Source: a phage. From it: DNA of 64,000 bases. The first letter of the stretch is position 1. Every line of letters begins with the position of its first letter. Shown here piece after piece: positions 10,627 through 32,917 of this stretch. A program made the translations under genes and the position numbers. Under the pieces are notes generated by a model. The model was not told the origin of the DNA and ran no database searches. It saw nothing but the letters and a program-made list of their open reading frames with translations. The DNA lies in sequence record PZ445447.1. One strand, written 5' to 3'.

Positions 10627-10813
10627 TTTTGAGAAGATTGTAAAGCGATCTCATGCTTCCGAAGAGCTGCCGGAACGCCGCCAGCGCAACAATAAACTGA
10701 ATAAGCCAAAAAGATTTGGGAAGATCTGGCGGAATCATTATGATCGCAAATTACCGGGCCTGCTTTTGGAACGTGAACGACAGGCGGAACGATACCGCCA
10801 CAAAGGCAAATAA
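10616..10813 (+). CDS. basic hypothetical protein
   Basis: ATG 10616 after aagggggg; Arg/Lys-rich. Confidence 0.4.
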   Translation: MKINFEKIVKRSHASEELPERRQRNNKLNKPKRFGKIWRNHYDRKLPGLLLERERQAERYRHKGK

Positions 10814-10821
10814 CAACCAAC

Positions 10822-10850
10822 GCCCCGCCATTGTGCGGGGCTTTTTATTT
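10822..10850 (+). terminator. rho-independent terminator
   Basis: hairpin ccccgc-cattgt-gcgggg followed by ctttttattt. Confidence 0.65.
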
Positions 10851-10984
10851 CTATCCTACAAATAGCGCCCCTGGTTGGCCCTGTAAGCGCCAAAAAGGCC
10901 CCACCTATGCAATCGCCCCCCTTTAACCTGAAAACATCGCTTAGGGCCGTTTTATGGCGTTAAAAATATCATTGACAGTGATTT

Positions 10985-11012
10985 TATTTAAAGCTTGACA
11001 TCTTAAACAGGT
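10985..11012 (+). promoter_or_regulatory. sigma70-type promoter
   Basis: TTGACA (10985) - 16 nt - TATACT (11007). Confidence 0.55.
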
Positions 11013-11054
11013 TAGCTATACTAACCACATCAAAGAGAGAAAGGAGTAAACGCC

Positions 11055-11315
11055 ATGCGTAAATTAAAAAATTTTGATAAAGTTGATGTTGTCCTGAATA
11101 ATTTTTACTACTGCAACAACAAGGCCATTTGGTGGCGTGATAGTTCCACCGATAAAGTCAAGGCGCGCTTTCTCCAGGGGCACTGGCAAGGCCGCCCAGT
11201 GATTAAAATCATGGGGCAATTGGTAGCGTTTAAAAATTGCCGCCGTGTTGATGACGTTGAAGAGATCTTGAATATTTTACGCCACAATAATTTAAAAAAT
11301 AGTGTTGACAAGTAA
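11055..11315 (+). CDS. hypothetical protein
   Basis: ORF with gagaaaggagtaaacgcc RBS. Confidence 0.55.
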   Translation: MRKLKNFDKVDVVLNNFYYCNNKAIWWRDSSTDKVKARFLQGHWQGRPVIKIMGQLVAFKNCRRVDDVEEILNILRHNNLKNSVDK

Positions 11316-21504: not shown

Positions 21505-21839
21505 CAGCTGCTATGGACGTAATGATCATCAGGATCACCACCAAAACCTCTGACAATGTTTTCATTGTGTATCCCATATTCTCCAAATGATGTGTGGATA
21601 TTATCACTGGAGCGGTAATGTGTCAACAGAAACGCCGCGAGGGTTTGGTTAAAATCCGAGCGTATGGTGATTTGGGTCAAAACGGACGTGCGTTCTCGCT
21701 ACGCTCGAAAGAGAGACTTGTTTGTAGAAAGCTCTTAAACGCTCTGTAACGAGATTATCTGTCCAAGGTATGCAATCGTGCACCAGATAAAGAAAAGGAC
21801 GCCACAGAGCGTCCTAGGTGTCTTAAATTTGATATTTTG

Positions 21840-22499: not shown

Positions 22500-22528
22500 A
22501 AAGAGGGGCCCAAGCCCCCCTCTTTGTC
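22500..22528 (-). terminator. putative rho-independent terminator
   Basis: minus-strand hairpin agagggggg-cttgg-gcccctct followed by ttttact. Confidence 0.5.
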
Positions 22529-23534: not shown

Positions 23535-23623
23535 ATAAGCACCTTACTGAAATACAAGACACAGTGTTAAGGTTACTGACCAGCAAATAATTAGCAGGAC
23601 CATTGCAACCTTGGCAAGATTTA

Positions 23624-23911
23624 TCATAGTGCCTCTAAGATTTCATATCCTTCAGGTCGAAATACAAGCCACTCCGTGGCTCCGTTTGGTCGATACGCTT
23701 TATACAGAACAACCTGGTCTCGGCACATGCACATGGCTACATAGTTTTCATCCACACCTGCAGCCTGCATTGCATCTTCTTCTCCGGCAACTGCTTTGCT
23801 TACAACTTCCTTGGTAGGCAGGTGTGCGATCAGCTCGTCACCATCATTAATTCCAAAATGGCTGAGTTCGCCGTTGGTATCTTTAATCTTAATCTTAACC
23901 AGATCTTTCAT
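23624..23911 (-). CDS. hypothetical protein
   Basis: ORF in tight co-directional array. Confidence 0.5.
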   Translation of the reverse strand: MKDLVKIKIKDTNGELSHFGINDGDELIAHLPTKEVVSKAVAGEEDAMQAAGVDENYVAMCMCRDQVVLYKAYRPNGATEWLVFRPEGYEILEAL

Positions 23912-24240
23912 TAGTCTTCCCCCAGGTTCAAAGGTCCTAAGATTTCATATGCCAGATTAGAAGTTACAAGAGGGTCTTCTGCGTCTTTAGTATTATACCA
24001 CCCGTGAATAACCAGAGTCCCACTTTGTTTCATGTCCAACTGGAACTCTTCTGCCGTTTCCTCATCCAGCTCCAAGATTTCCATAAGGTATTTGATGTTA
24101 GGGAGGTATGCAGCTGTTACAGTCCCCTCTACCAGACCTTCAGGCCAACCTACATCTGGATGACAAGTAGGAACCAGGTTGGTCAGCTTAATGGTGTACG
24201 CTTTTTCTGCACGAGCCTTCAGTAACGGGTCAATCTTCAT
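23911..24240 (-). CDS. hypothetical protein
   Basis: ORF; stop/start overlap with neighbours. Confidence 0.5.
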   Translation of the reverse strand: MKIDPLLKARAEKAYTIKLTNLVPTCHPDVGWPEGLVEGTVTAAYLPNIKYLMEILELDEETAEEFQLDMKQSGTLVIHGWYNTKDAEDPLVTSNLAYEILGPLNLGED

Positions 24241-24590
24241 TATTCGTCCTCCTCTTCGGTACCTGCTTCCAGTAATAAGTTAAGAATATCTTCTGCACAA
24301 GGTTCATAGAACTCTTGGCCTTCATTATCGATGATTTTGTAGTCATCTCCACGAATAATCAGGGGATCACTCTCAAAATTATCGAGACCTTTAACAACGA
24401 CAACACGATCGATTGCCATCATTGTAAGAACTTTATCGACATCTTCCTCTGCTACACCATACTGCAGCAGAATGTCTTTGGTAGGAGGAACAGCATCCAC
24501 CACAACGCCGTTACCAAAACCTTCTGGAAGTTTAGCTAAAATATCTTCCGGAACCACATTCACATCAAAACCGGTAATTTCTACTTTCAT
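24240..24590 (-). CDS. hypothetical protein (MKVE start, acidic C-terminus)
   Basis: 116 aa; possible divergent member of the small paralog family. Confidence 0.55.
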   Translation of the reverse strand: MKVEITGFDVNVVPEDILAKLPEGFGNGVVVDAVPPTKDILLQYGVAEEDVDKVLTMMAIDRVVVVKGLDNFESDPLIIRGDDYKIIDNEGQEFYEPCAEDILNLLLEAGTEEEDE

Positions 24591-24851
24591 TTACAGCACC
24601 TCTTCGTCAACTACTTCATAAAAATGGCCTGGGATTGCAATAGCGTTCTCACCTTCACCTACAAACACAGTTCCGTCAAGAATCAACATCATAAGAATTT
24701 CTGTAATATCCTCTTCCGGAACATTGCCAAAACCTTTAATCAGCTCGTAGGTTGGAATATTTACCTCTAAGATGTCACCATCTTTAGAACGGAAATCAAC
24801 ACCGTCCTGAATCTCTGCCGTTTCAAGGTTTTTCAATTTAATCTTCATCAA
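24591..24851 (-). CDS. hypothetical protein (MKIK start, acidic C-terminus)
   Basis: 86 aa; ends ...YEVVDEEVL as in paralog family. Confidence 0.55.
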   Translation of the reverse strand: MMKIKLKNLETAEIQDGVDFRSKDGDILEVNIPTYELIKGFGNVPEEDITEILMMLILDGTVFVGEGENAIAIPGHFYEVVDEEVL

Positions 24852-24927
24852 TCGGTCCCCTGTCTTGTTAAGATGAAGGTATTATTTCACACAGGGTTGG
24901 CGTTGTCAACACCTGTGTGCAAGAAAA

Positions 24928-25323
24928 TTACTGAAACAGTGCGGATAAATTACCTTCTGGTGGGAACTTATCTGCCAAAAACGGTGTTAGCACAGTAGCC
25001 TTCTGAAGATCTGGGGTCCACTCGTTGTTCAGAACATCCCAGTAGTACGCAATGTTGCTGTGTGGGTGCCGCATTACGAACTTTTTCCCTTCGTAGTCAT
25101 CTGAAACCTCTACAGAAGAAATAACAACAGAATCTTCAAGGGTTTCTTCATAGAAGGATCCACCTTCAAATTTCCAACGAGATGCAAGAGCCCCTGCCTT
25201 GAACGCTGCAGATAACGGACTGTCGGCAAGAACATACATTTCTTGCACTCTGTCGCTGCGATCTTTGCTTCTTACGTTGTATACAGTATCTGAGCTATAC
25301 TTAACACGGTATAGGCTTACCAT
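24928..25323 (-). CDS. hypothetical protein, 131-aa paralog copy A
   Basis: shares FV.xHPxS....YW......WTP block with 27135..27533. Confidence 0.55.
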   Translation of the reverse strand: MVSLYRVKYSSDTVYNVRSKDRSDRVQEMYVLADSPLSAAFKAGALASRWKFEGGSFYEETLEDSVVISSVEVSDDYEGKKFVMRHPHSNIAYYWDVLNNEWTPDLQKATVLTPFLADKFPPEGNLSALFQ

Positions 25324-25682
25324 TACCGCACCTCCTCAATAACTTCCACATCTGAACCTACCACAAATGCAAAAGGACAGGTTTCATGAAAGATATCCGG
25401 ATCGCCGCCAAGCTTGCTAACAATTTCTCCACCACTAATAAACACAAGCTCACCGATATTCATCAGATTGCTGAAATAGTACCCATAATGATTAAAGAAT
25501 GCAGCAGGGTCAGGTAGACTAGTAGCCTCAAGCACTACATCGGTTGAGGTTACTTTCTTATCATAACCTCTCGCCTTTTGAGATGCAAGATCTGCAGAAT
25601 CCTCAGGCGACCGGAGATGCACAGGAATTGTTTCACCAATAAAGCGTACTTTCATATTATCACCCAACAACCATAGCTTCAA
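25323..25682 (-). CDS. small paralog-family protein
   Basis: LVFISGGEIVSKLGG...VVGSDVEVIEE resembles 27546..27800; start probably the internal MKVRF. Confidence 0.5.
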   Translation of the reverse strand: MKLWLLGDNMKVRFIGETIPVHLRSPEDSADLASQKARGYDKKVTSTDVVLEATSLPDPAAFFNHYGYYFSNLMNIGELVFISGGEIVSKLGGDPDIFHETCPFAFVVGSDVEVIEEVR

Positions 25683-25923
25683 AAGGAGTCATGAACGAAT
25701 AAACGGCATCATCATCTGCTTCAGGGAATGCTCCCAAAGACTTCATATCTGAGCCCTTGACAAATACAAGGTTTTGATCAAAGGCTTCTTGGGGGTCAAT
25801 CCGATACATATTTCGTAAAATATCGCTTACCTCCTCATCAAGAGGTGAGTATGCTGTGCACGTTTTTCCGATCAAGCTTTGAGAATCAGGGTATCCACCT
25901 GAAGTTTTAAAATAAACAATCAT
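25660..25923 (-). CDS. small paralog-family protein
   Basis: VFVKGSDMKSLGAFPE block resembles 27790..28017 and 29585..29818. Confidence 0.5.
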   Translation of the reverse strand: MIVYFKTSGGYPDSQSLIGKTCTAYSPLDEEVSDILRNMYRIDPQEAFDQNLVFVKGSDMKSLGAFPEADDDAVYSFMTPFEAMVVG

Positions 25924-26014
25924 ATAGTATCACCTCTGGTAAGAGATTGGGACTCCTTTCCCACAAATAATTACAAATCTTCCTTAGCGAGGAAGTATGC
26001 TAATCCAAGCAGGA

Positions 26015-26284
26015 TTATTCCTCTACAATCTCATACACATCAGGAGTTACAATCAACTCTTCTCCGTTACCCGGTGCAACAAACACCACCAAACCTTCAG
26101 GTGTGTGCTTTTTAGCCATCTCGATAACATCTTCTCGCAGAGCTGGCTCCATAAGATCAAAACCTTCACCTAGGGCATCACGAACCACCTTCATATAGTC
26201 CACTGGTTGTGCTTCAACAATCATGCCTTCAACCAGTCCACAATTTTTGTCTGCCAGCTCAGTTTGGAATAATTTAATTTTCAT
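26015..26284 (-). CDS. hypothetical protein (MKIK start, acidic C-terminus)
   Basis: 89 aa; ends ...YEIVEE. Confidence 0.55.
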   Translation of the reverse strand: MKIKLFQTELADKNCGLVEGMIVEAQPVDYMKVVRDALGEGFDLMEPALREDVIEMAKKHTPEGLVVFVAPGNGEELIVTPDVYEIVEE

Positions 26285-26421
26285 TTAGAGGTCTCCTCAA
26301 TTATTTGATATTAATAGCCGTAACCTAACACATTAACTACAACTGCGATTGCAAACATAATTTCAAAGCATGCAATCTCTACATTTGGGACTAATTTCTT
26401 AATCACACCCATTGTAGCACC

Positions 26422-26742
26422 TCATTCTCCAAAGTCAATCTTTACTTTGCCTTTCCCCTTACCTTTCTTTCCACCGCATTTAGCCAGCTGACGTGCTGCA
26501 ACATCTACCATACGGTCAGTTGCCTCGTAAGCATCACTGCCTTTAGCCTTGGCAATAACTTCTTTTCCAGAATTGTCAAAAATGAACGCCATAACTTCCT
26601 GGTGATCATTTTCAACTTTTACACTCACACGTGCATAGTTAACAGAGGGATGTAAACGCTCCAGCTTGGACATTTTGCGGGAAATAAAAGATACCATACC
26701 TTCTGTGATTTCTACATTGTTGCCAGTGATTTCAATCTGCAT
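26422..26742 (-). CDS. hpf: ribosome hibernation promoting factor / RaiA-family protein
   Basis: MQIEITGNNVEITEGMVSFISRKMSKLERL... aligns with E. coli HPF MQLNITGNNVEITEALREFVTAKFAKLEQ...; Lys/Gly-rich C-terminal tail. Confidence 0.8.
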   Translation of the reverse strand: MQIEITGNNVEITEGMVSFISRKMSKLERLHPSVNYARVSVKVENDHQEVMAFIFDNSGKEVIAKAKGSDAYEATDRMVDVAARQLAKCGGKKGKGKGKVKIDFGE

Positions 26743-26826
26743 AACGTGTTCCTTTTAAGGAAGAGGGAATAACTATCTCTCTTTGAAAACAATGATACTA
26801 AATCTGAAGCGTTGTGTCAACAGTTT

Positions 26827-27117
26827 TTACAGCTTGTTGTCGATAGTTTTTAAAATATCCACAGCAAGATCTGCCATTTTTCGAACATACTCTGCAAACT
26901 CAACAGGATCCTTGATCAAAGAATTCACAGGGTCGTACCCTAGAGCGTTTAAAATGGCTGCAGCATCTACAACCTTCTCATCATTTGCGAAGATCTCTCC
27001 GTCAAACTTGTAGGTCCATTTTGAGTCAACCTTAGCAGAGCAGGGTTTGTCCATGCTTGTTACACCATCGTCTTTAAACTCTCCTGCGTTATCAATATTT
27101 AGAATTAAATCCATCAT
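26827..27117 (-). CDS. hypothetical protein
   Basis: 96 aa acidic ORF. Confidence 0.5.
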   Translation of the reverse strand: MMDLILNIDNAGEFKDDGVTSMDKPCSAKVDSKWTYKFDGEIFANDEKVVDAAAILNALGYDPVNSLIKDPVEFAEYVRKMADLAVDILKTIDNKL

Positions 27118-27134
27118 GGTGACACCTCACTGTT

Positions 27135-27533
27135 TCAGTTTAGCTTTTCTTCAACAACCCCATAACTTGGGGCAGAGTCAAGAGCTTTCTGGTTTAAAAG
27201 TGGCGTAGCAGAATCTGCAAACGGTGTCCAAGTTTTTGTTCTGGCATTCCAGTAATGCTTCACTCTGGAATCTGGATGCACTATAACAAAAACTTTTTCA
27301 CTTGTCAACACATTAATTTCTTCTACACCCTTGCTGATAATTTCTCCGTCATAGCCCCCAGTCTGGTATCCTTCGTACCAGGTTCTTGCATAGGCATAGC
27401 CAGCCTGCCAGCATGCAGCCTCCTCCGAGGTGGAGACTACGTAGAAGTCTTTCTCAAATTCTGGAATACGCCCTTGCTTTACGCTCCAAGCCCCGCGAAT
27501 TTTCATTGTAACTTTAAACAGTTTATTTTTCAC
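27135..27533 (-). CDS. hypothetical protein, 131-aa paralog copy B
   Basis: FVIVHPDSRVKHYWNARTKTWTP matches copy A FVMRHPHSNIAYYWDVLNNEWTP. Confidence 0.55.
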   Translation of the reverse strand: MKNKLFKVTMKIRGAWSVKQGRIPEFEKDFYVVSTSEEAACWQAGYAYARTWYEGYQTGGYDGEIISKGVEEINVLTSEKVFVIVHPDSRVKHYWNARTKTWTPFADSATPLLNQKALDSAPSYGVVEEKLN

Positions 27534-27545
27534 AACGGTTACCCA

Positions 27546-27800
27546 TCACAGCTCTACAATATCTGCATCTGACCCTACCCCAAAGGCATAGTAGGACTCT
27601 TCCCCGAAATAATATTCAGGTGCACCAGCGGTGATCAGGTCTGATCCCAAGATAAACACCACGTTGTGGCCTACATAACTGTGATGTTGCCGCACAGGAT
27701 CATCCCACGGCAACCCTTCAAAGTATACCGCAGGAACGACCTTTCCATTCAGGAAGGATTGTCCCAAGTAGACGTTAGAATCAAGAATTTTAACCTTCAT
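27546..27800 (-). CDS. small paralog-family protein
   Basis: MKVKILDSNVYLGQ... shares N-terminus with 27790..28017. Confidence 0.55.
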   Translation of the reverse strand: MKVKILDSNVYLGQSFLNGKVVPAVYFEGLPWDDPVRQHHSYVGHNVVFILGSDLITAGAPEYYFGEESYYAFGVGSDADIVEL

Positions 27801-28017
27801 GATCGTCCTCCACTACCTCTACATCCTCACCTAGGGCAAAGTTATAGGTCCACTGACTGTCAAAGCATTCCTGAGATGCACCAGCGGCAATAAGATCTGC
27901 TCCTTTTATTTTTAAAAGGTCAGGGTAATCTTCGTTATGGACAGCAGTAAACACTTTTCCTACTAAAGGCTCCTGACCAATATAGAAGCTTGAATCTAAA
28001 ACTTTAACTTTCATCAA
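27790..28017 (-). CDS. small paralog-family protein
   Basis: MKVKVLDSSFYIGQ...KIKGADLIAAGA...VEVVEDD. Confidence 0.55.
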   Translation of the reverse strand: MMKVKVLDSSFYIGQEPLVGKVFTAVHNEDYPDLLKIKGADLIAAGASQECFDSQWTYNFALGEDVEVVEDDHEG

Positions 28018-28301
28018 CGGTCTCCATCAGGTGGTTGTGGGACGTAAACACTGTTACGAATATCGTCAGCAGTGTAGTAATAAGTGGTTCCAACCCTGTC
28101 TCGGGCTGCAATGTACTCTGCTATACCAATAAGTGCCATTGATTTGGTGGCGTATCTTCCCCACTCGTTAGCTCCCCAGTAGAATTTAGACCAGTAAGGA
28201 ATAAGACCGAACAAATATACCTTTTGACGAACTTCCCAGTAAGTGCCTTTTCCGACAAGTTTAAACTCGACTTCACTACTGTTAATCTTTTTCATTATCA
28301 A
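28014..28301 (-). CDS. hypothetical protein
   Basis: 95 aa, aromatic-rich. Confidence 0.5.
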   Translation of the reverse strand: MIMKKINSSEVEFKLVGKGTYWEVRQKVYLFGLIPYWSKFYWGANEWGRYATKSMALIGIAEYIAARDRVGTTYYYTADDIRNSVYVPQPPDGDR

Positions 28302-28382
28302 TCTCCCTCTACCGTGGTAGGATTGTCAGTAAGAAATTGAGCATTGGCTGGAGGCACGTTTTTACATATTTAACAAACATCG

Positions 28383-28586
28383 TCACCCCTCATCGCACGT
28401 CTGATATAGCCACTCTATAAAATCTTGATACCATTCGCCCTCTGAGCGCTCCGTAGGCCAATAATCTTCACCCTCTCGTGCATTAAAATCTGAGTATTCA
28501 ACTTTCCACTCCTTTACCAGCTCGTGGAGAAGGTTTTCAGCCTGCTCTAAAGATTTATTTTTTACCATTGCTGTCTCCTTTTTCAA
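28383..28586 (-). CDS. hypothetical protein
   Basis: probable start at internal ATG (MVKNKSL) after aaaaaggagacagca RBS. Confidence 0.45.
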   Translation of the reverse strand: MKKETAMVKNKSLEQAENLLHELVKEWKVEYSDFNAREGEDYWPTERSEGEWYQDFIEWLYQTCDEG

Positions 28587-28787
28587 GATAGTTATACATC
28601 AGAACTGCACCACCTAAGATGGCTACCAGTAACAATACCCCAGATAGCATCTCAATAAACATGGCTTGAAACACTGGAAGGCCTCCCTAAATTAACGCAC
28701 CATTTTAAATACATGCTCTTTTCCCATAAAGGTGCCTGGCTAAGATCTGCGTAGAACGCAATCTCTTTAAGAACAGTATAAACAGTT

Positions 28788-29024
28788 TTAGGTGCGGTCT
28801 CCATCCCTACCCTCCTTTTTCTCCTTACGGATATTCTTGTAGTAATCAACCAGGCACATTATCACGATGAAGATAACAACAGGCCAAAAAGGTGCAGCAG
28901 TGATGATGGTGATAAAATCATCAAACTTCACCCTTCGTCTGGACACGATGCATACACCTGTCAAGAATACCGCTGTTATAACGGACATTACCAGGTAACC
29001 TATTAGCACAACATTTATACTCAT
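28788..29024 (-). CDS. small membrane protein (two TM helices)
   Basis: two hydrophobic helices then basic tail; holin-like topology, unproven. Confidence 0.5.
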   Translation of the reverse strand: MSINVVLIGYLVMSVITAVFLTGVCIVSRRRVKFDDFITIITAAPFWPVVIFIVIMCLVDYYKNIRKEKKEGRDGDRT

Positions 29025-29054
29025 TGGTCCTCCCTTTGTAGGTTAAACTGTATA

Positions 29055-29588
29055 CTACAAATGGCAACTGAGGGTGTCAAGAAAATTATCCCGTTCTTTC
29101 TCAGAGTTTTCATGGGTGTAGCTGAAAAACATATCGAGAATAACCTTATTGATATATTCCAGCTCCTCTGTGTTCAGATGCTTAGCAGGATCTACAATGA
29201 CATCCCAAATATCATACAGACCACACTCATGATACCCATAACGCCACTCAATTGTCAAGCTGAGCGGCAAATCTTTACCGTCACAAACAACCTTCCATCT
29301 ACATATGTTGGTATCTGGTCGTATCTGTGCACGGTACACCTGTACAAAATCCAATTTGAATTTGAGGTACTCGTCATACAATTTAAGCACAAAGCTCTCG
29401 ATTTGTGGAGACACTTTTGCAGCAAACTGTGCGTATTTGTACTTGCACTGGATGATCTTTCTGCGTTTTGCAGTTAAATTTTTTGCCGCCAGTTGTTCTT
29501 CAGTGTATCTCCACCTACGATCAACAAACGCAACAGGGTCTTTGTCCCCATAGAGGTCTTCCCAGTTAATCAGAAGCATACCTGTCAC
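29055..29588 (-). CDS. hypothetical protein
   Basis: 177 aa; no motif recognised. Confidence 0.55.
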   Translation of the reverse strand: MTGMLLINWEDLYGDKDPVAFVDRRWRYTEEQLAAKNLTAKRRKIIQCKYKYAQFAAKVSPQIESFVLKLYDEYLKFKLDFVQVYRAQIRPDTNICRWKVVCDGKDLPLSLTIEWRYGYHECGLYDIWDVIVDPAKHLNTEELEYINKVILDMFFSYTHENSEKERDNFLDTLSCHL

Positions 29589-29818
29589 TCCTCCACAACT
29601 TCAAGGCCTTTACCGCCTCGCTCTGGCAGATTACTTAAAGATAGGTAATACATATAATCAGGAGAGATCCTGCCAGACTCTGCACCTGCAGCTAGTAAAT
29701 CCTTCCCTTTAACCAGGACAACATTCTCGTTTGCAGATAGCCGTTTTGCTTCCACAATTTTACCAACACAGTCAACCAAGGAAGGGTACCCTAAATCTGT
29801 AAGAAATTTAACTTTCAT
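29585..29818 (-). CDS. small paralog-family protein
   Basis: MKVKFLTDL...VLVKGKDLLAAGAE...GLEVVEE. Confidence 0.55.
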   Translation of the reverse strand: MKVKFLTDLGYPSLVDCVGKIVEAKRLSANENVVLVKGKDLLAAGAESGRISPDYMYYLSLSNLPERGGKGLEVVEE

Positions 29819-29857
29819 GCTACCTCCTGCTTCTACCGTCCCCGGTAAGATAAATTA

Positions 29858-30256
29858 TTACTGAACAGAGCGCGGAGCTGGGAAGGATAACTCTTCTAAA
29901 GAGAAGATTTCATTCCCCACAATCCATGTTGCAGGATCATCTGGGTTGACTGGATAGATAATCATCACCTCGTCAGTGTTACATACCCGCTTTTTACCTG
30001 TGGAGTCATCAGCAACCAGCATGCGCGGTTCTTCAGAAATGCACAGGTAGCCTCCTCGGCCCACTGTTCCTTCCACAGGATCTTGTCCTTTGATCACGAT
30101 GATTATCTTCTCTCCTGAGGTGATATTACCTTGCACACTCACCGTTTGACCAACTTTAGATGTGCCGAACTTGGTGGTTTCAAACATTAAATCTCGAATT
30201 ACTGTTGCATAGTCTCCAGACACTTTCTTACCTTCTTTAGTGATCTCAATCTTCAT
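29858..30256 (-). CDS. hypothetical protein
   Basis: 132 aa, MKIEIT start. Confidence 0.55.
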   Translation of the reverse strand: MKIEITKEGKKVSGDYATVIRDLMFETTKFGTSKVGQTVSVQGNITSGEKIIIVIKGQDPVEGTVGRGGYLCISEEPRMLVADDSTGKKRVCNTDEVMIIYPVNPDDPATWIVGNEIFSLEELSFPAPRSVQ

Positions 30257-30519
30257 ACACTGGGCTCCTTAAATGAATCTATGTAATCAATTAAATCCCA
30301 AGCATCCCTATGACCTGTCAGAGGGTATACTTCTCCAAGAGGGATCATAGCAATAAGTCTATCAAAAACCCAAGCTGGACGCAACATTTTATGGTGATAC
30401 TCCCACTCACCCTCTACAGATTTTTTCTGAGTAATCAGGATCTCTGTGTAGTGTTTCGCCTGTCTTGAGTAAATTGAAAATGACTTGTACATAAATGACC
30501 CCCTTGTTGATAACAACAA
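30253..30519 (-). CDS. hypothetical protein
   Basis: 88 aa; start uncertain. Confidence 0.45.
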   Translation of the reverse strand: MLLSTRGSFMYKSFSIYSRQAKHYTEILITQKKSVEGEWEYHHKMLRPAWVFDRLIAMIPLGEVYPLTGHRDAWDLIDYIDSFKEPSV

Positions 30520-30526
30520 TACACAA

Positions 30527-30880
30527 CTACCAGGTTACTGTCAAGTAGGCAACCGTGTTATTTTTCTCTGGAGAGATGCCAACAACATCTACCTGCAGAC
30601 CTCCTGCCCTCAAATCCCCAACAATATGCGGGAAGTAATCTGAGAGATGTGAGGGTAGATTTATCGAAAATCCGCATCCCAGAAAGCCTGCTAACGCTTT
30701 ATTTTGTATCTCCCCTACAATCGCATCATAAATGGAGTTAAGCTCGTCAGGGAGCGTTACAGGACGTTTTAGCGCTAACTGGTGCAACTTGTCCTTAGCA
30801 CTCATTTTCATTTCAAATCTGCCTCTGGTGGTGCCAACCACATAAATGGCGGCAAGTCTAGACGGTTTTTCTTGTCCCAT
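30527..30880 (-). CDS. hypothetical protein
   Basis: overlaps 3' end of upstream methyltransferase; real start probably the internal MKMSAKDK. Confidence 0.4.
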   Translation of the reverse strand: MGQEKPSRLAAIYVVGTTRGRFEMKMSAKDKLHQLALKRPVTLPDELNSIYDAIVGEIQNKALAGFLGCGFSINLPSHLSDYFPHIVGDLRAGGLQVDVVGISPEKNNTVAYLTVTW

Positions 30881-32814: not shown

Positions 32815-32917
32815 ACTATCTCCTTCTACTTGTCTTGTCCGATAATAATATCTAAATCTTACCTGTTTGTCAACAACTGTTTTAGATATTTAAGGGTGGA
32901 ATAACCACCCTTCTGTA

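Follow-up and report, generated by a model that had tools for sequence, protein, structure and literature searches.

Do the small acidic proteins encoded side by side in the accessory region of a Vequintavirus belong to a few related families or form a miscellany, and what might they do? We studied this question in a 64-kb stretch of phage DNA (sequence record PZ445447.1; the whole 64,000-nucleotide stretch is "the window" below), of which positions 23600-30300 match Escherichia phage MaxBurger (Bas54, MZ501093.1, Vequintavirus, rV5-like) at 100% identity and ~120 further records at 90-99%. Twelve genes in a 6.6-kb stretch of this region encode three families of small, mostly acidic proteins, here called S (n = 5), G2 (n = 5) and B (n = 2). 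The minus strand carries every gene in the block (family coordinates below are all on that strand, and members are named by their lower coordinate), and all are annotated "hypothetical" except two. Paralogs were sought by all-against-all BLASTP among the 24 open reading frames (ORFs) of the block, and profile searches with hidden Markov models (HMMs) ran against the 476 window ORFs of ≥40 aa. Comparisons covered six other Vequintavirus genomes and two diverged relatives recovered from public assemblies (L020 and L022, whose ClpP is 69% and methyltransferase 85-87% identical to those of MaxBurger).

A first-pass annotation of this DNA had grouped five small ORFs into one paralog family, and BLASTP, in-window HMM searches and the PHROG families all bear this out. 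Specifically, BLASTP links S_27546 to S_27790 (40% identity, E 1.7e-15) and S_27790 to S_29585 (32% identity, E 1.9e-7), and an HMM built from these three alone finds S_25660 (E 2e-6) and S_25323 (E 5.6e-5) as the next best of the 476 ORFs, with the rest at E > 1. The HMM of phrog_5009 (unknown function) matches S_27790 at 1.1e-38, S_29585 at 8.3e-36 and S_27546 at 3.7e-32; its match to S_25660 is weak (1.2e-4), and S_25323 gives none at E ≤ 0.01. The members are a solitary copy of 77 aa upstream of a "glycosidase" gene (S_29585, 29585-29818), two genes in what we call module A and two in module B. Gene 1 of module A (S_27790, 27790-28014, 74 aa) starts at the ATG at 28014, which corrects an earlier start of 28017, and gene 2 (S_27546, 27546-27800, 84 aa) has a 14-residue insert past strand 2 of the fold described below. 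In module B, gene 1 (S_25660, 25660-25923, 87 aa) carries a long insert past the same strand, and gene 2 (S_25323, 25323-25655, 110 aa from MKVRF) ends in a stop codon that overlaps the start of the 24928 gene. The start of S_25323 is most likely 25655 (MKVRF) and not 25682, since the PHROG alignment begins at residue 10 of the longer ORF. Profile and BLASTP searches found no other S, G2 or B member in the rest of the 64-kb window.

Structure prediction of one small member, a check proposed in the first-pass annotation, gave a confident fold. The AlphaFold model of S_27790 (predicted local distance difference test, pLDDT, 90; predicted template modeling score, pTM, 0.78; 25-sequence alignment) has five strands and one short helix, and we confidently predict that the S family is an SH3-like five-stranded barrel. 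In this model strand 1 is formed by the "MKVK" start and strand 5 by the "VEVVE" end, and the conserved GxDLxxAGA block makes up the end of strand 3 and the helix. The MK[VI]K start and acidic C-terminus noted at first pass correspond to strands 1 and 5 of the predicted barrel, and the model has no free acidic tail: the acidic residues alternate with hydrophobic ones within the barrel strand and make no charge array. The fold is shared with SH3-like barrels such as the KOW domains of Spt5/NusG, PsaE, eukaryotic SH3 domains and ribosomal L24/eL14, at 4-25% sequence identity. However, the GxDLxxAGA motif is specific to S, and S proteins are acidic, unlike the RNA-binding KOW and ribosomal members. 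Foldseek of the S model against viral models returned only uncharacterized small phage proteins, and Pfam at E ≤ 1 matched no S member or distant relative, which gives no support to membership in KOW or SH3 sequence families.

The two ORFs of 131-132 aa proposed as mutual paralogs proved to be so. B_24928 and B_27135 share 28% identity over 119 aa (E 4e-10), and both match phrog_7379 (unknown function) over their full length, B_27135 at 4.3e-74 and B_24928 at 4.6e-66. B_27135 (27135-27533, 132 aa, GTG start) is gene 3 of module A, and B_24928 (24928-25323, 131 aa) is gene 3 of module B. Across the whole 64-kb window, the S and B pairs are the sole BLASTP paralog pairs at E < 1e-3. A structure model of one B protein was obtained but did not reach a confident fold; it suggests alpha/beta proteins. 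A WW-like reading of the B C-terminus ("YW......WTP") was rejected: isolated C-terminal segments have no Pfam match at E ≤ 10, "WTP" is WVS or WVA in diverged orthologs, and the second Trp-x-x-Pro is unconserved.

The third family, G2, emerged from profile searches and has five members. In leave-one-out HMM searches, each omitted G2 member ranks first among the 476 ORFs (5/5 cases). One member stands apart (G2_26015, 26015-26284, 89 aa, leave-one-out E 1.7e-4), and the other four lie in tandem with overlapping stop and start codons: G2_24591 (24591-24848, 85 aa, first of the four; E 0.07, with BLASTP to G2_24240 at E 2.9e-4), G2_24240 (24240-24590, 116 aa, net charge -21; E 3.2e-5), G2_23911 (23911-24240, 109 aa; E 4e-3) and G2_23624 (23624-23911, 95 aa; E 2.7e-5). 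The last two were outside the list of members in the first-pass annotation. All follow a pattern in which MK-[IV]-K and G-x-[IV]-h-x-A-x-x-P-T precede a stretch that is acidic and helical, followed by G-x-h-V-h and a closing Y-E-I-V; diverged orthologs align in register, and net charges are -11 to -21. The ORFs at 26015, 24591 and 24240 had been suggested as distant S members. S profiles do not detect them (hmmsearch E 0.38 or worse); they are acidic relatives of one another, together with 23911 and 23624. Profile-profile comparison of G2 with S by hhalign gives a probability of 10-22% (P≈1e-3) over the N-terminal 24-28 columns (strand-loop-strand), and with the S_27546 subfamily a probability of 40% (P 3e-4) over 68 collinear columns. 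Across several such set-ups kinship between G2 and S is suggestive only; as read from these alignments, G2 probably has the strand order of S plus a helical insert.

The isoelectric point (pI) is 4.0-5.4 in 11 of the 12 S, G2 and B proteins, with a net charge as low as -21, and acidity is common to most small proteins of the block, non-members included. Searches of all members against Pfam, NCBIfam, PADLOC and PDB sequences revealed no enzymatic motif and no known domain (in PADLOC, nothing below E 0.04), in agreement with the initial impression that none carries an enzymatic motif. In the literature on Vequintavirus/rV5 early genes, anti-defense and host takeover we found no mention of S, G2 or B genes, and the BASEL paper does not discuss them.

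How did this arrangement arise? The order S-S-B occurs twice, and shuffling the 29 block genes reproduces it in ~2/10,000 trials (P≈2e-4). Given the BLASTP, HMM, PHROG and permutation results, we consider the five-member S family, the B pair and the repeated order real. The further proposal that a three-gene module was duplicated in tandem fared less well. By core score, the two S genes of module A (27790 and 27546) are mutually closest (134), the gene-2 pair (27546 and 25323) is second best (108), and 25660 is nearest to 29585. Position-wise orthology therefore fits the gene-3 (B) pair and the gene-2 pair but not the gene-1 pair, in which module A gene 1 is nearest its own gene 2 and 25660 is nearest 29585. 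Part of the pattern fits duplication of an S-B pair, yet the history appears more complex than one segmental duplication; because the S genes of module A are mutually closest and both diverged relatives have a single B gene, a clean three-gene duplication is not demonstrated.

Exchange between adjacent S genes still happens. The DNA of S_27546 and S_27790 remains 80% identical over 30 nt (27618-27647 vs. 27874-27903), and a hybrid gene in some assemblies (P0014) joins the N-terminal half of S_27790 to the C-terminal half of S_27546, with the crossover in this 30-nt stretch. By its sequence, P0014 is a product of unequal recombination between tandem paralogs.

Within the genus the array is stable. 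Gene content and copy number are constant in 5/6 of the other Vequintavirus genomes, the exception being phage EduardKellenberger (Bas59), which has a deletion. The pooled ratio of nonsynonymous to synonymous substitution rates (dN/dS) within the genus is 0.04-0.23 for every member, and neighboring genes are alike (e.g., ClpP, 0.04). Diversifying selection on the within-genus time-scale was thus rejected in favor of purifying selection. The description of the array as "diversifying" did not survive these values, the fixed gene content outside Bas59 and the age of the ten S and G2 lineages, and comparing copy number across related phages, as had been proposed, revealed no variation in the six other genomes bar Bas59.

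In the diverged relatives, L022 retains 5/5 S lineages and L020 retains four, with the fifth reduced to a 44-aa remnant; 5/5 G2 lineages are present in L020, and the L022 contig stops before the four tandem G2 genes. Given this presence in L020 and L022, the ten S and G2 lineages all arose before the split from these relatives, which on these comparisons makes the expansions old and stable. Both relatives have one B gene, an ortholog of B_24928 (38-40% identity), and lack B_27135, at whose position L020 has a truncated S remnant and L022 an unrelated 106-aa ORF. Identities of members to their L020/L022 orthologs span 29-79% (73-74% for S_29585), against 69% for ClpP and 85-87% for the methyltransferase; as judged from these identities, members change faster than core enzymes at depth. 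No B or G2 homolog was found outside Vequintavirus and its close relatives (even at E ≤ 1 for G2), and all three families are absent from the syntenic regions of the sister genera Seunavirus and Mydovirus.

The deletion in Bas59 (L013) offers a natural experiment on module A. BLASTN of the window against this genome, together with its annotation, places the missing segment at 27221-29182. The deletion takes away the C-terminal portion of the 29055 gene, every gene from 28788 to 28014, both S genes of module A (S_27790 and S_27546) and the bulk of B_27135, whose last 23 codons are left fused to what remains of the 29055 gene. Bas59 lyses the same strains as its relatives, and since it is viable without 27221-29182, module A is dispensable in the laboratory. 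A separate fusion, in a 120-kb Logan contig (P0039), joins the core of B_27135 to the C-terminal half of the downstream 26827 gene; its sequence marks it as a second deletion junction inside module A and a natural variant.

Beyond the window, an exhaustive profile search of 1.8 billion representatives recovered no more than 41 S relatives (E ≤ 1e-3), mostly proteins of 63-87 aa with the same motif. A few carry two or three tandem S domains, and distant relatives match phrog_5009 and phrog_13367. In sequenced phages outside Vequintavirus, S homologs occur as one copy per genome, surrounded by small accessory genes; the sites are the gp32-frd gap of T4-like Citrobacter phages (e.g., Moon), the interval between Q and holin in the lambdoid phage MagusPhagus and E. 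coli prophages, and a locus in a Proteus podovirus. Three metagenomic contigs with distant S homologs were too short to give gene context.

Transcription appears to be organized from host-type promoters. On the minus strand, five intergenic sites 24-50 nt upstream of gene starts carry σ70-type promoters with a perfect TTGACA; these begin at 32873, 30544, 29080, 26820 and 24909. Four of them head units that contain family members. The promoter at 30516-30544 (TTGACA-17-TATTGT), conserved in six other Vequintavirus loci, precedes an apparent operon from 30253 to 29055 with S_29585; that at 29052-29080 (TTGACA-17-TAGTAT), whose three substitutions in other phages all fall in the spacer, precedes one from 28788 to 26827 with module A. 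The promoter at 26792-26820 (TTGACA-17-TATCAT), which in phage FV3 has five substitutions, all in the spacer, with hexamers intact, heads a unit running from a ribosome hibernation factor gene (HPF, described below) to 24928 that holds G2_26015 and module B, and that at 24881-24909 (TTGACA-17-AATAAT, with a TG extension), whose hexamers are kept in other phages, heads the four tandem G2 genes. Genes in the block are tightly packed, often with overlapping stop and start codons. As the hexamers stay intact while the spacers vary between phages, the promoters are likely functional; transcription by host RNA polymerase is plausible, and expression may be early. In the interval between the B gene and the tandem G2 genes, where MaxBurger has only a promoter-bearing gap, L020 carries a 98-aa gene (10802-11098) with Pfam PF27050 (Phage_P22_Y8K6).

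What, then, might these proteins do? Our preferred reading, held tentatively, is that these small, soluble, non-enzymatic proteins bind host proteins stoichiometrically, as inhibitors or adaptors. The S, G2 and B genes would be transcribed by host RNA polymerase from the host-type promoters soon after infection, the old paralogs would have settled on different partners, and each B protein would act together with the S gene next upstream of it. Early timing, binding function, host targets and S-B partnership are here what we infer from an accessory status (absence from the syntenic regions of Seunavirus and Mydovirus, loss of module A in a viable phage), the modular use of the S domain (single copies in T4-like, lambdoid and podoviral accessory arrays, and some tandem-domain proteins), the non-random S-S-B order, paralogy, a faster change than in core genes at depth, acidity, the lack of a catalytic domain, conserved promoters and dN/dS of 0.04-0.23. 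Several points weigh against this. The SH3-like fold is generic; the S-B partnership is read from adjacency, and L022 keeps the S_27546 lineage without B_27135; B offers almost no sequence depth and was modeled poorly (pLDDT 56). Lambdoid prophages have the S homolog in a late operon, between Q and holin, so that early host takeover does not characterize the S family as a whole. Finally, on K-12, Bas59 has the plating pattern of Bas57 and Bas58 on 11 immunity systems, a comparison that concerns module A only.

The same deletion bears on the interpretation offered at first pass (host takeover or anti-defense), read in its specific form as an anti-defense arsenal in which each paralog would block its own bacterial immune system. 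That the proteins are small, acidic and accessory, that the array is lineage-restricted and that its genes change faster than core genes between distant relatives would all fit. However, known counter-defense loci are usually variable, whereas the Vequintavirus genomes compared show no presence/absence mosaic and selection on these genes is purifying. PADLOC gives no matches, and module A, the part missing from Bas59, is unneeded against those 11 systems; the EcoPI result varies among intact phages too. Vequintavirinae are, moreover, exceptionally susceptible to restriction-modification systems (BASEL, PMC8594841). We therefore consider an anti-defense arsenal unlikely. A role internal to the phage, as small regulators, chaperones or adaptors for its replication, transcription timing or assembly, is also unlikely, if slightly less so: it accords with strong purifying selection and a copy number fixed across the genus, with ten S and G2 lineages kept in relatives at 69% ClpP identity and with the late-operon site of the lambdoid S homolog, but sister genera with the same core machinery lack the families, module A is dispensable, and homologs turn up one at a time in unrelated phage types whose machineries differ.

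Other readings turn on charge, neighborhood or chance. The most acidic members, G2 especially, might mimic nucleic acids and so decoy host DNA- or RNA-binding proteins: their pI of 4.0-4.7 is typical of DNA-mimic proteins such as Ocr and Arn, and the net negative charge is high for proteins this small; we find this improbable, as the acidic C-terminal residues of S are predicted to lie in a barrel strand without a charge array and most small block proteins, non-members too, are acidic. A translation-directed set, in which S, G2 and B would act on the ribosome with the embedded hibernation factor, would suit the position of HPF within the block and the conservation of both in the diverged relatives. 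Yet RNA-binding ribosomal proteins are basic and S, G2 and B acidic, and among ~29 small genes HPF may be a neighbor by chance, so that we regard this as very improbable. We give next to no credence to compositional chance without real families: several pairwise matches are indeed weak (E 1e-3 to 1e-2 in a tiny database), but chance is excluded by profile searches that place precisely the proposed members above 470 other ORFs, by independent PHROG clustering that agrees for S and B, by the 41 related representatives with the same motif and by diverged orthologs that align in register. A more ambitious form of the host-binder reading, in which S and G2 are one ten-member SH3-like barrel radiation and, with the two B partners, make up a hitherto undescribed host-inhibitor set (possibly counter-defense factors or, in view of the HPF gene among them, translation modulators) with each paralog fixed on a different E. 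coli target and the S-B pairs acting as two-component units, is a long shot.

In part, the array resembles what is already known. Large lytic phages carry arrays of small accessory ORFs, such as the "hyperplastic" regions of T4 (e.g., the 32-frd gap) and host-takeover modules. Like the T4 small-ORF arrays, the genes here are small, tightly packed, lineage-specific and behind host-type promoters, and an S homolog lies in that very gap, between gp32 and frd, in the T4-like phage Moon. Unlike in T4-type arrays, however, just three families (possibly two), all made up of ancient paralogs, account for 12 of the ~29 block genes. The small phage inhibitors T7 Gp2, phi29 p56 and AcrIE2 are among the closest known systems. 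Among PHROGs, phrog_5009 (with 13367, 7345 and 8603) and phrog_7379 cover three S and both B proteins, all as "unknown function"; S_25660, S_25323 and every G2 member are split into separate single-lineage families, and the fivefold expansion, G2 and the repeated order are unrecorded. Thus, the families were already known as unnamed PHROGs, and lineage-specific expansion of small accessory phage proteins is a familiar phenomenon; what this analysis adds is an SH3-like fold for S, the recognition of G2, the division into operons, the finding that the expansion is old and stable, the lack of the second B gene in relatives and the natural deletion data.

The neighborhood of the families holds several further features. 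The HPF gene (26422-26742, minus strand) encodes a short ribosome hibernation factor (HPF/RaiA; Pfam Ribosomal_S30AE, 4e-15) that is present in L020 and L022 at 57-64% identity to the window copy. The "putative glycosidase" (29055-29588, minus strand; BASEL annotation) matches a PHROG family of unknown function only, and Pfam at E ≤ 1 gives no match and hence no domain support. Between 28301 and 28383, MaxBurger lacks ~1.75 kb with six genes that most Vequintaviruses carry here (L006 5195-7044), one of them with a label that varies between records ("virion structural protein" or "HNH homing endonuclease"); no S, G2 or B member was found in this six-gene segment. Near the end of the long leftward gene array there are terminator-like GC hairpins with T-runs at 22504-22520 and 21796-21815 (both minus strand), and the strand skew switches sign near 21-22 kb. 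Elsewhere, the class III anaerobic ribonucleotide reductase gene is annotated as two joined pieces with a homing-endonuclease gene inside (L001 17321-18701; record 109290-111997), so that nrdD in L001 looks intron-interrupted. Eighteen "Campylobacter phage" records (GenBank MG065635-MG065684) are 97-98% identical to E. coli Vequintavirus across the region and are probably mislabeled or from contaminating coliphage.

Vequintaviruses are widely used therapeutic and model coliphages (e.g., in the BASEL collection), and three uncharacterized families make up ~40% of this accessory block's genes. The number of independent unknowns is therefore smaller than the gene count: S is a predicted SH3-like binding scaffold, and the ten barrel-type genes, as we read them, are ancient conserved paralogs. 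This paralogy calls for multi-gene knock-out designs, as redundancy may mask single deletions, and the natural deletion in Bas59 provides a ready-made comparison strain. If the proteins are not inhibitors of host factors, the array would be an ordinary lineage-specific expansion; if they are, it would hold up to twelve new small binders of E. coli proteins.

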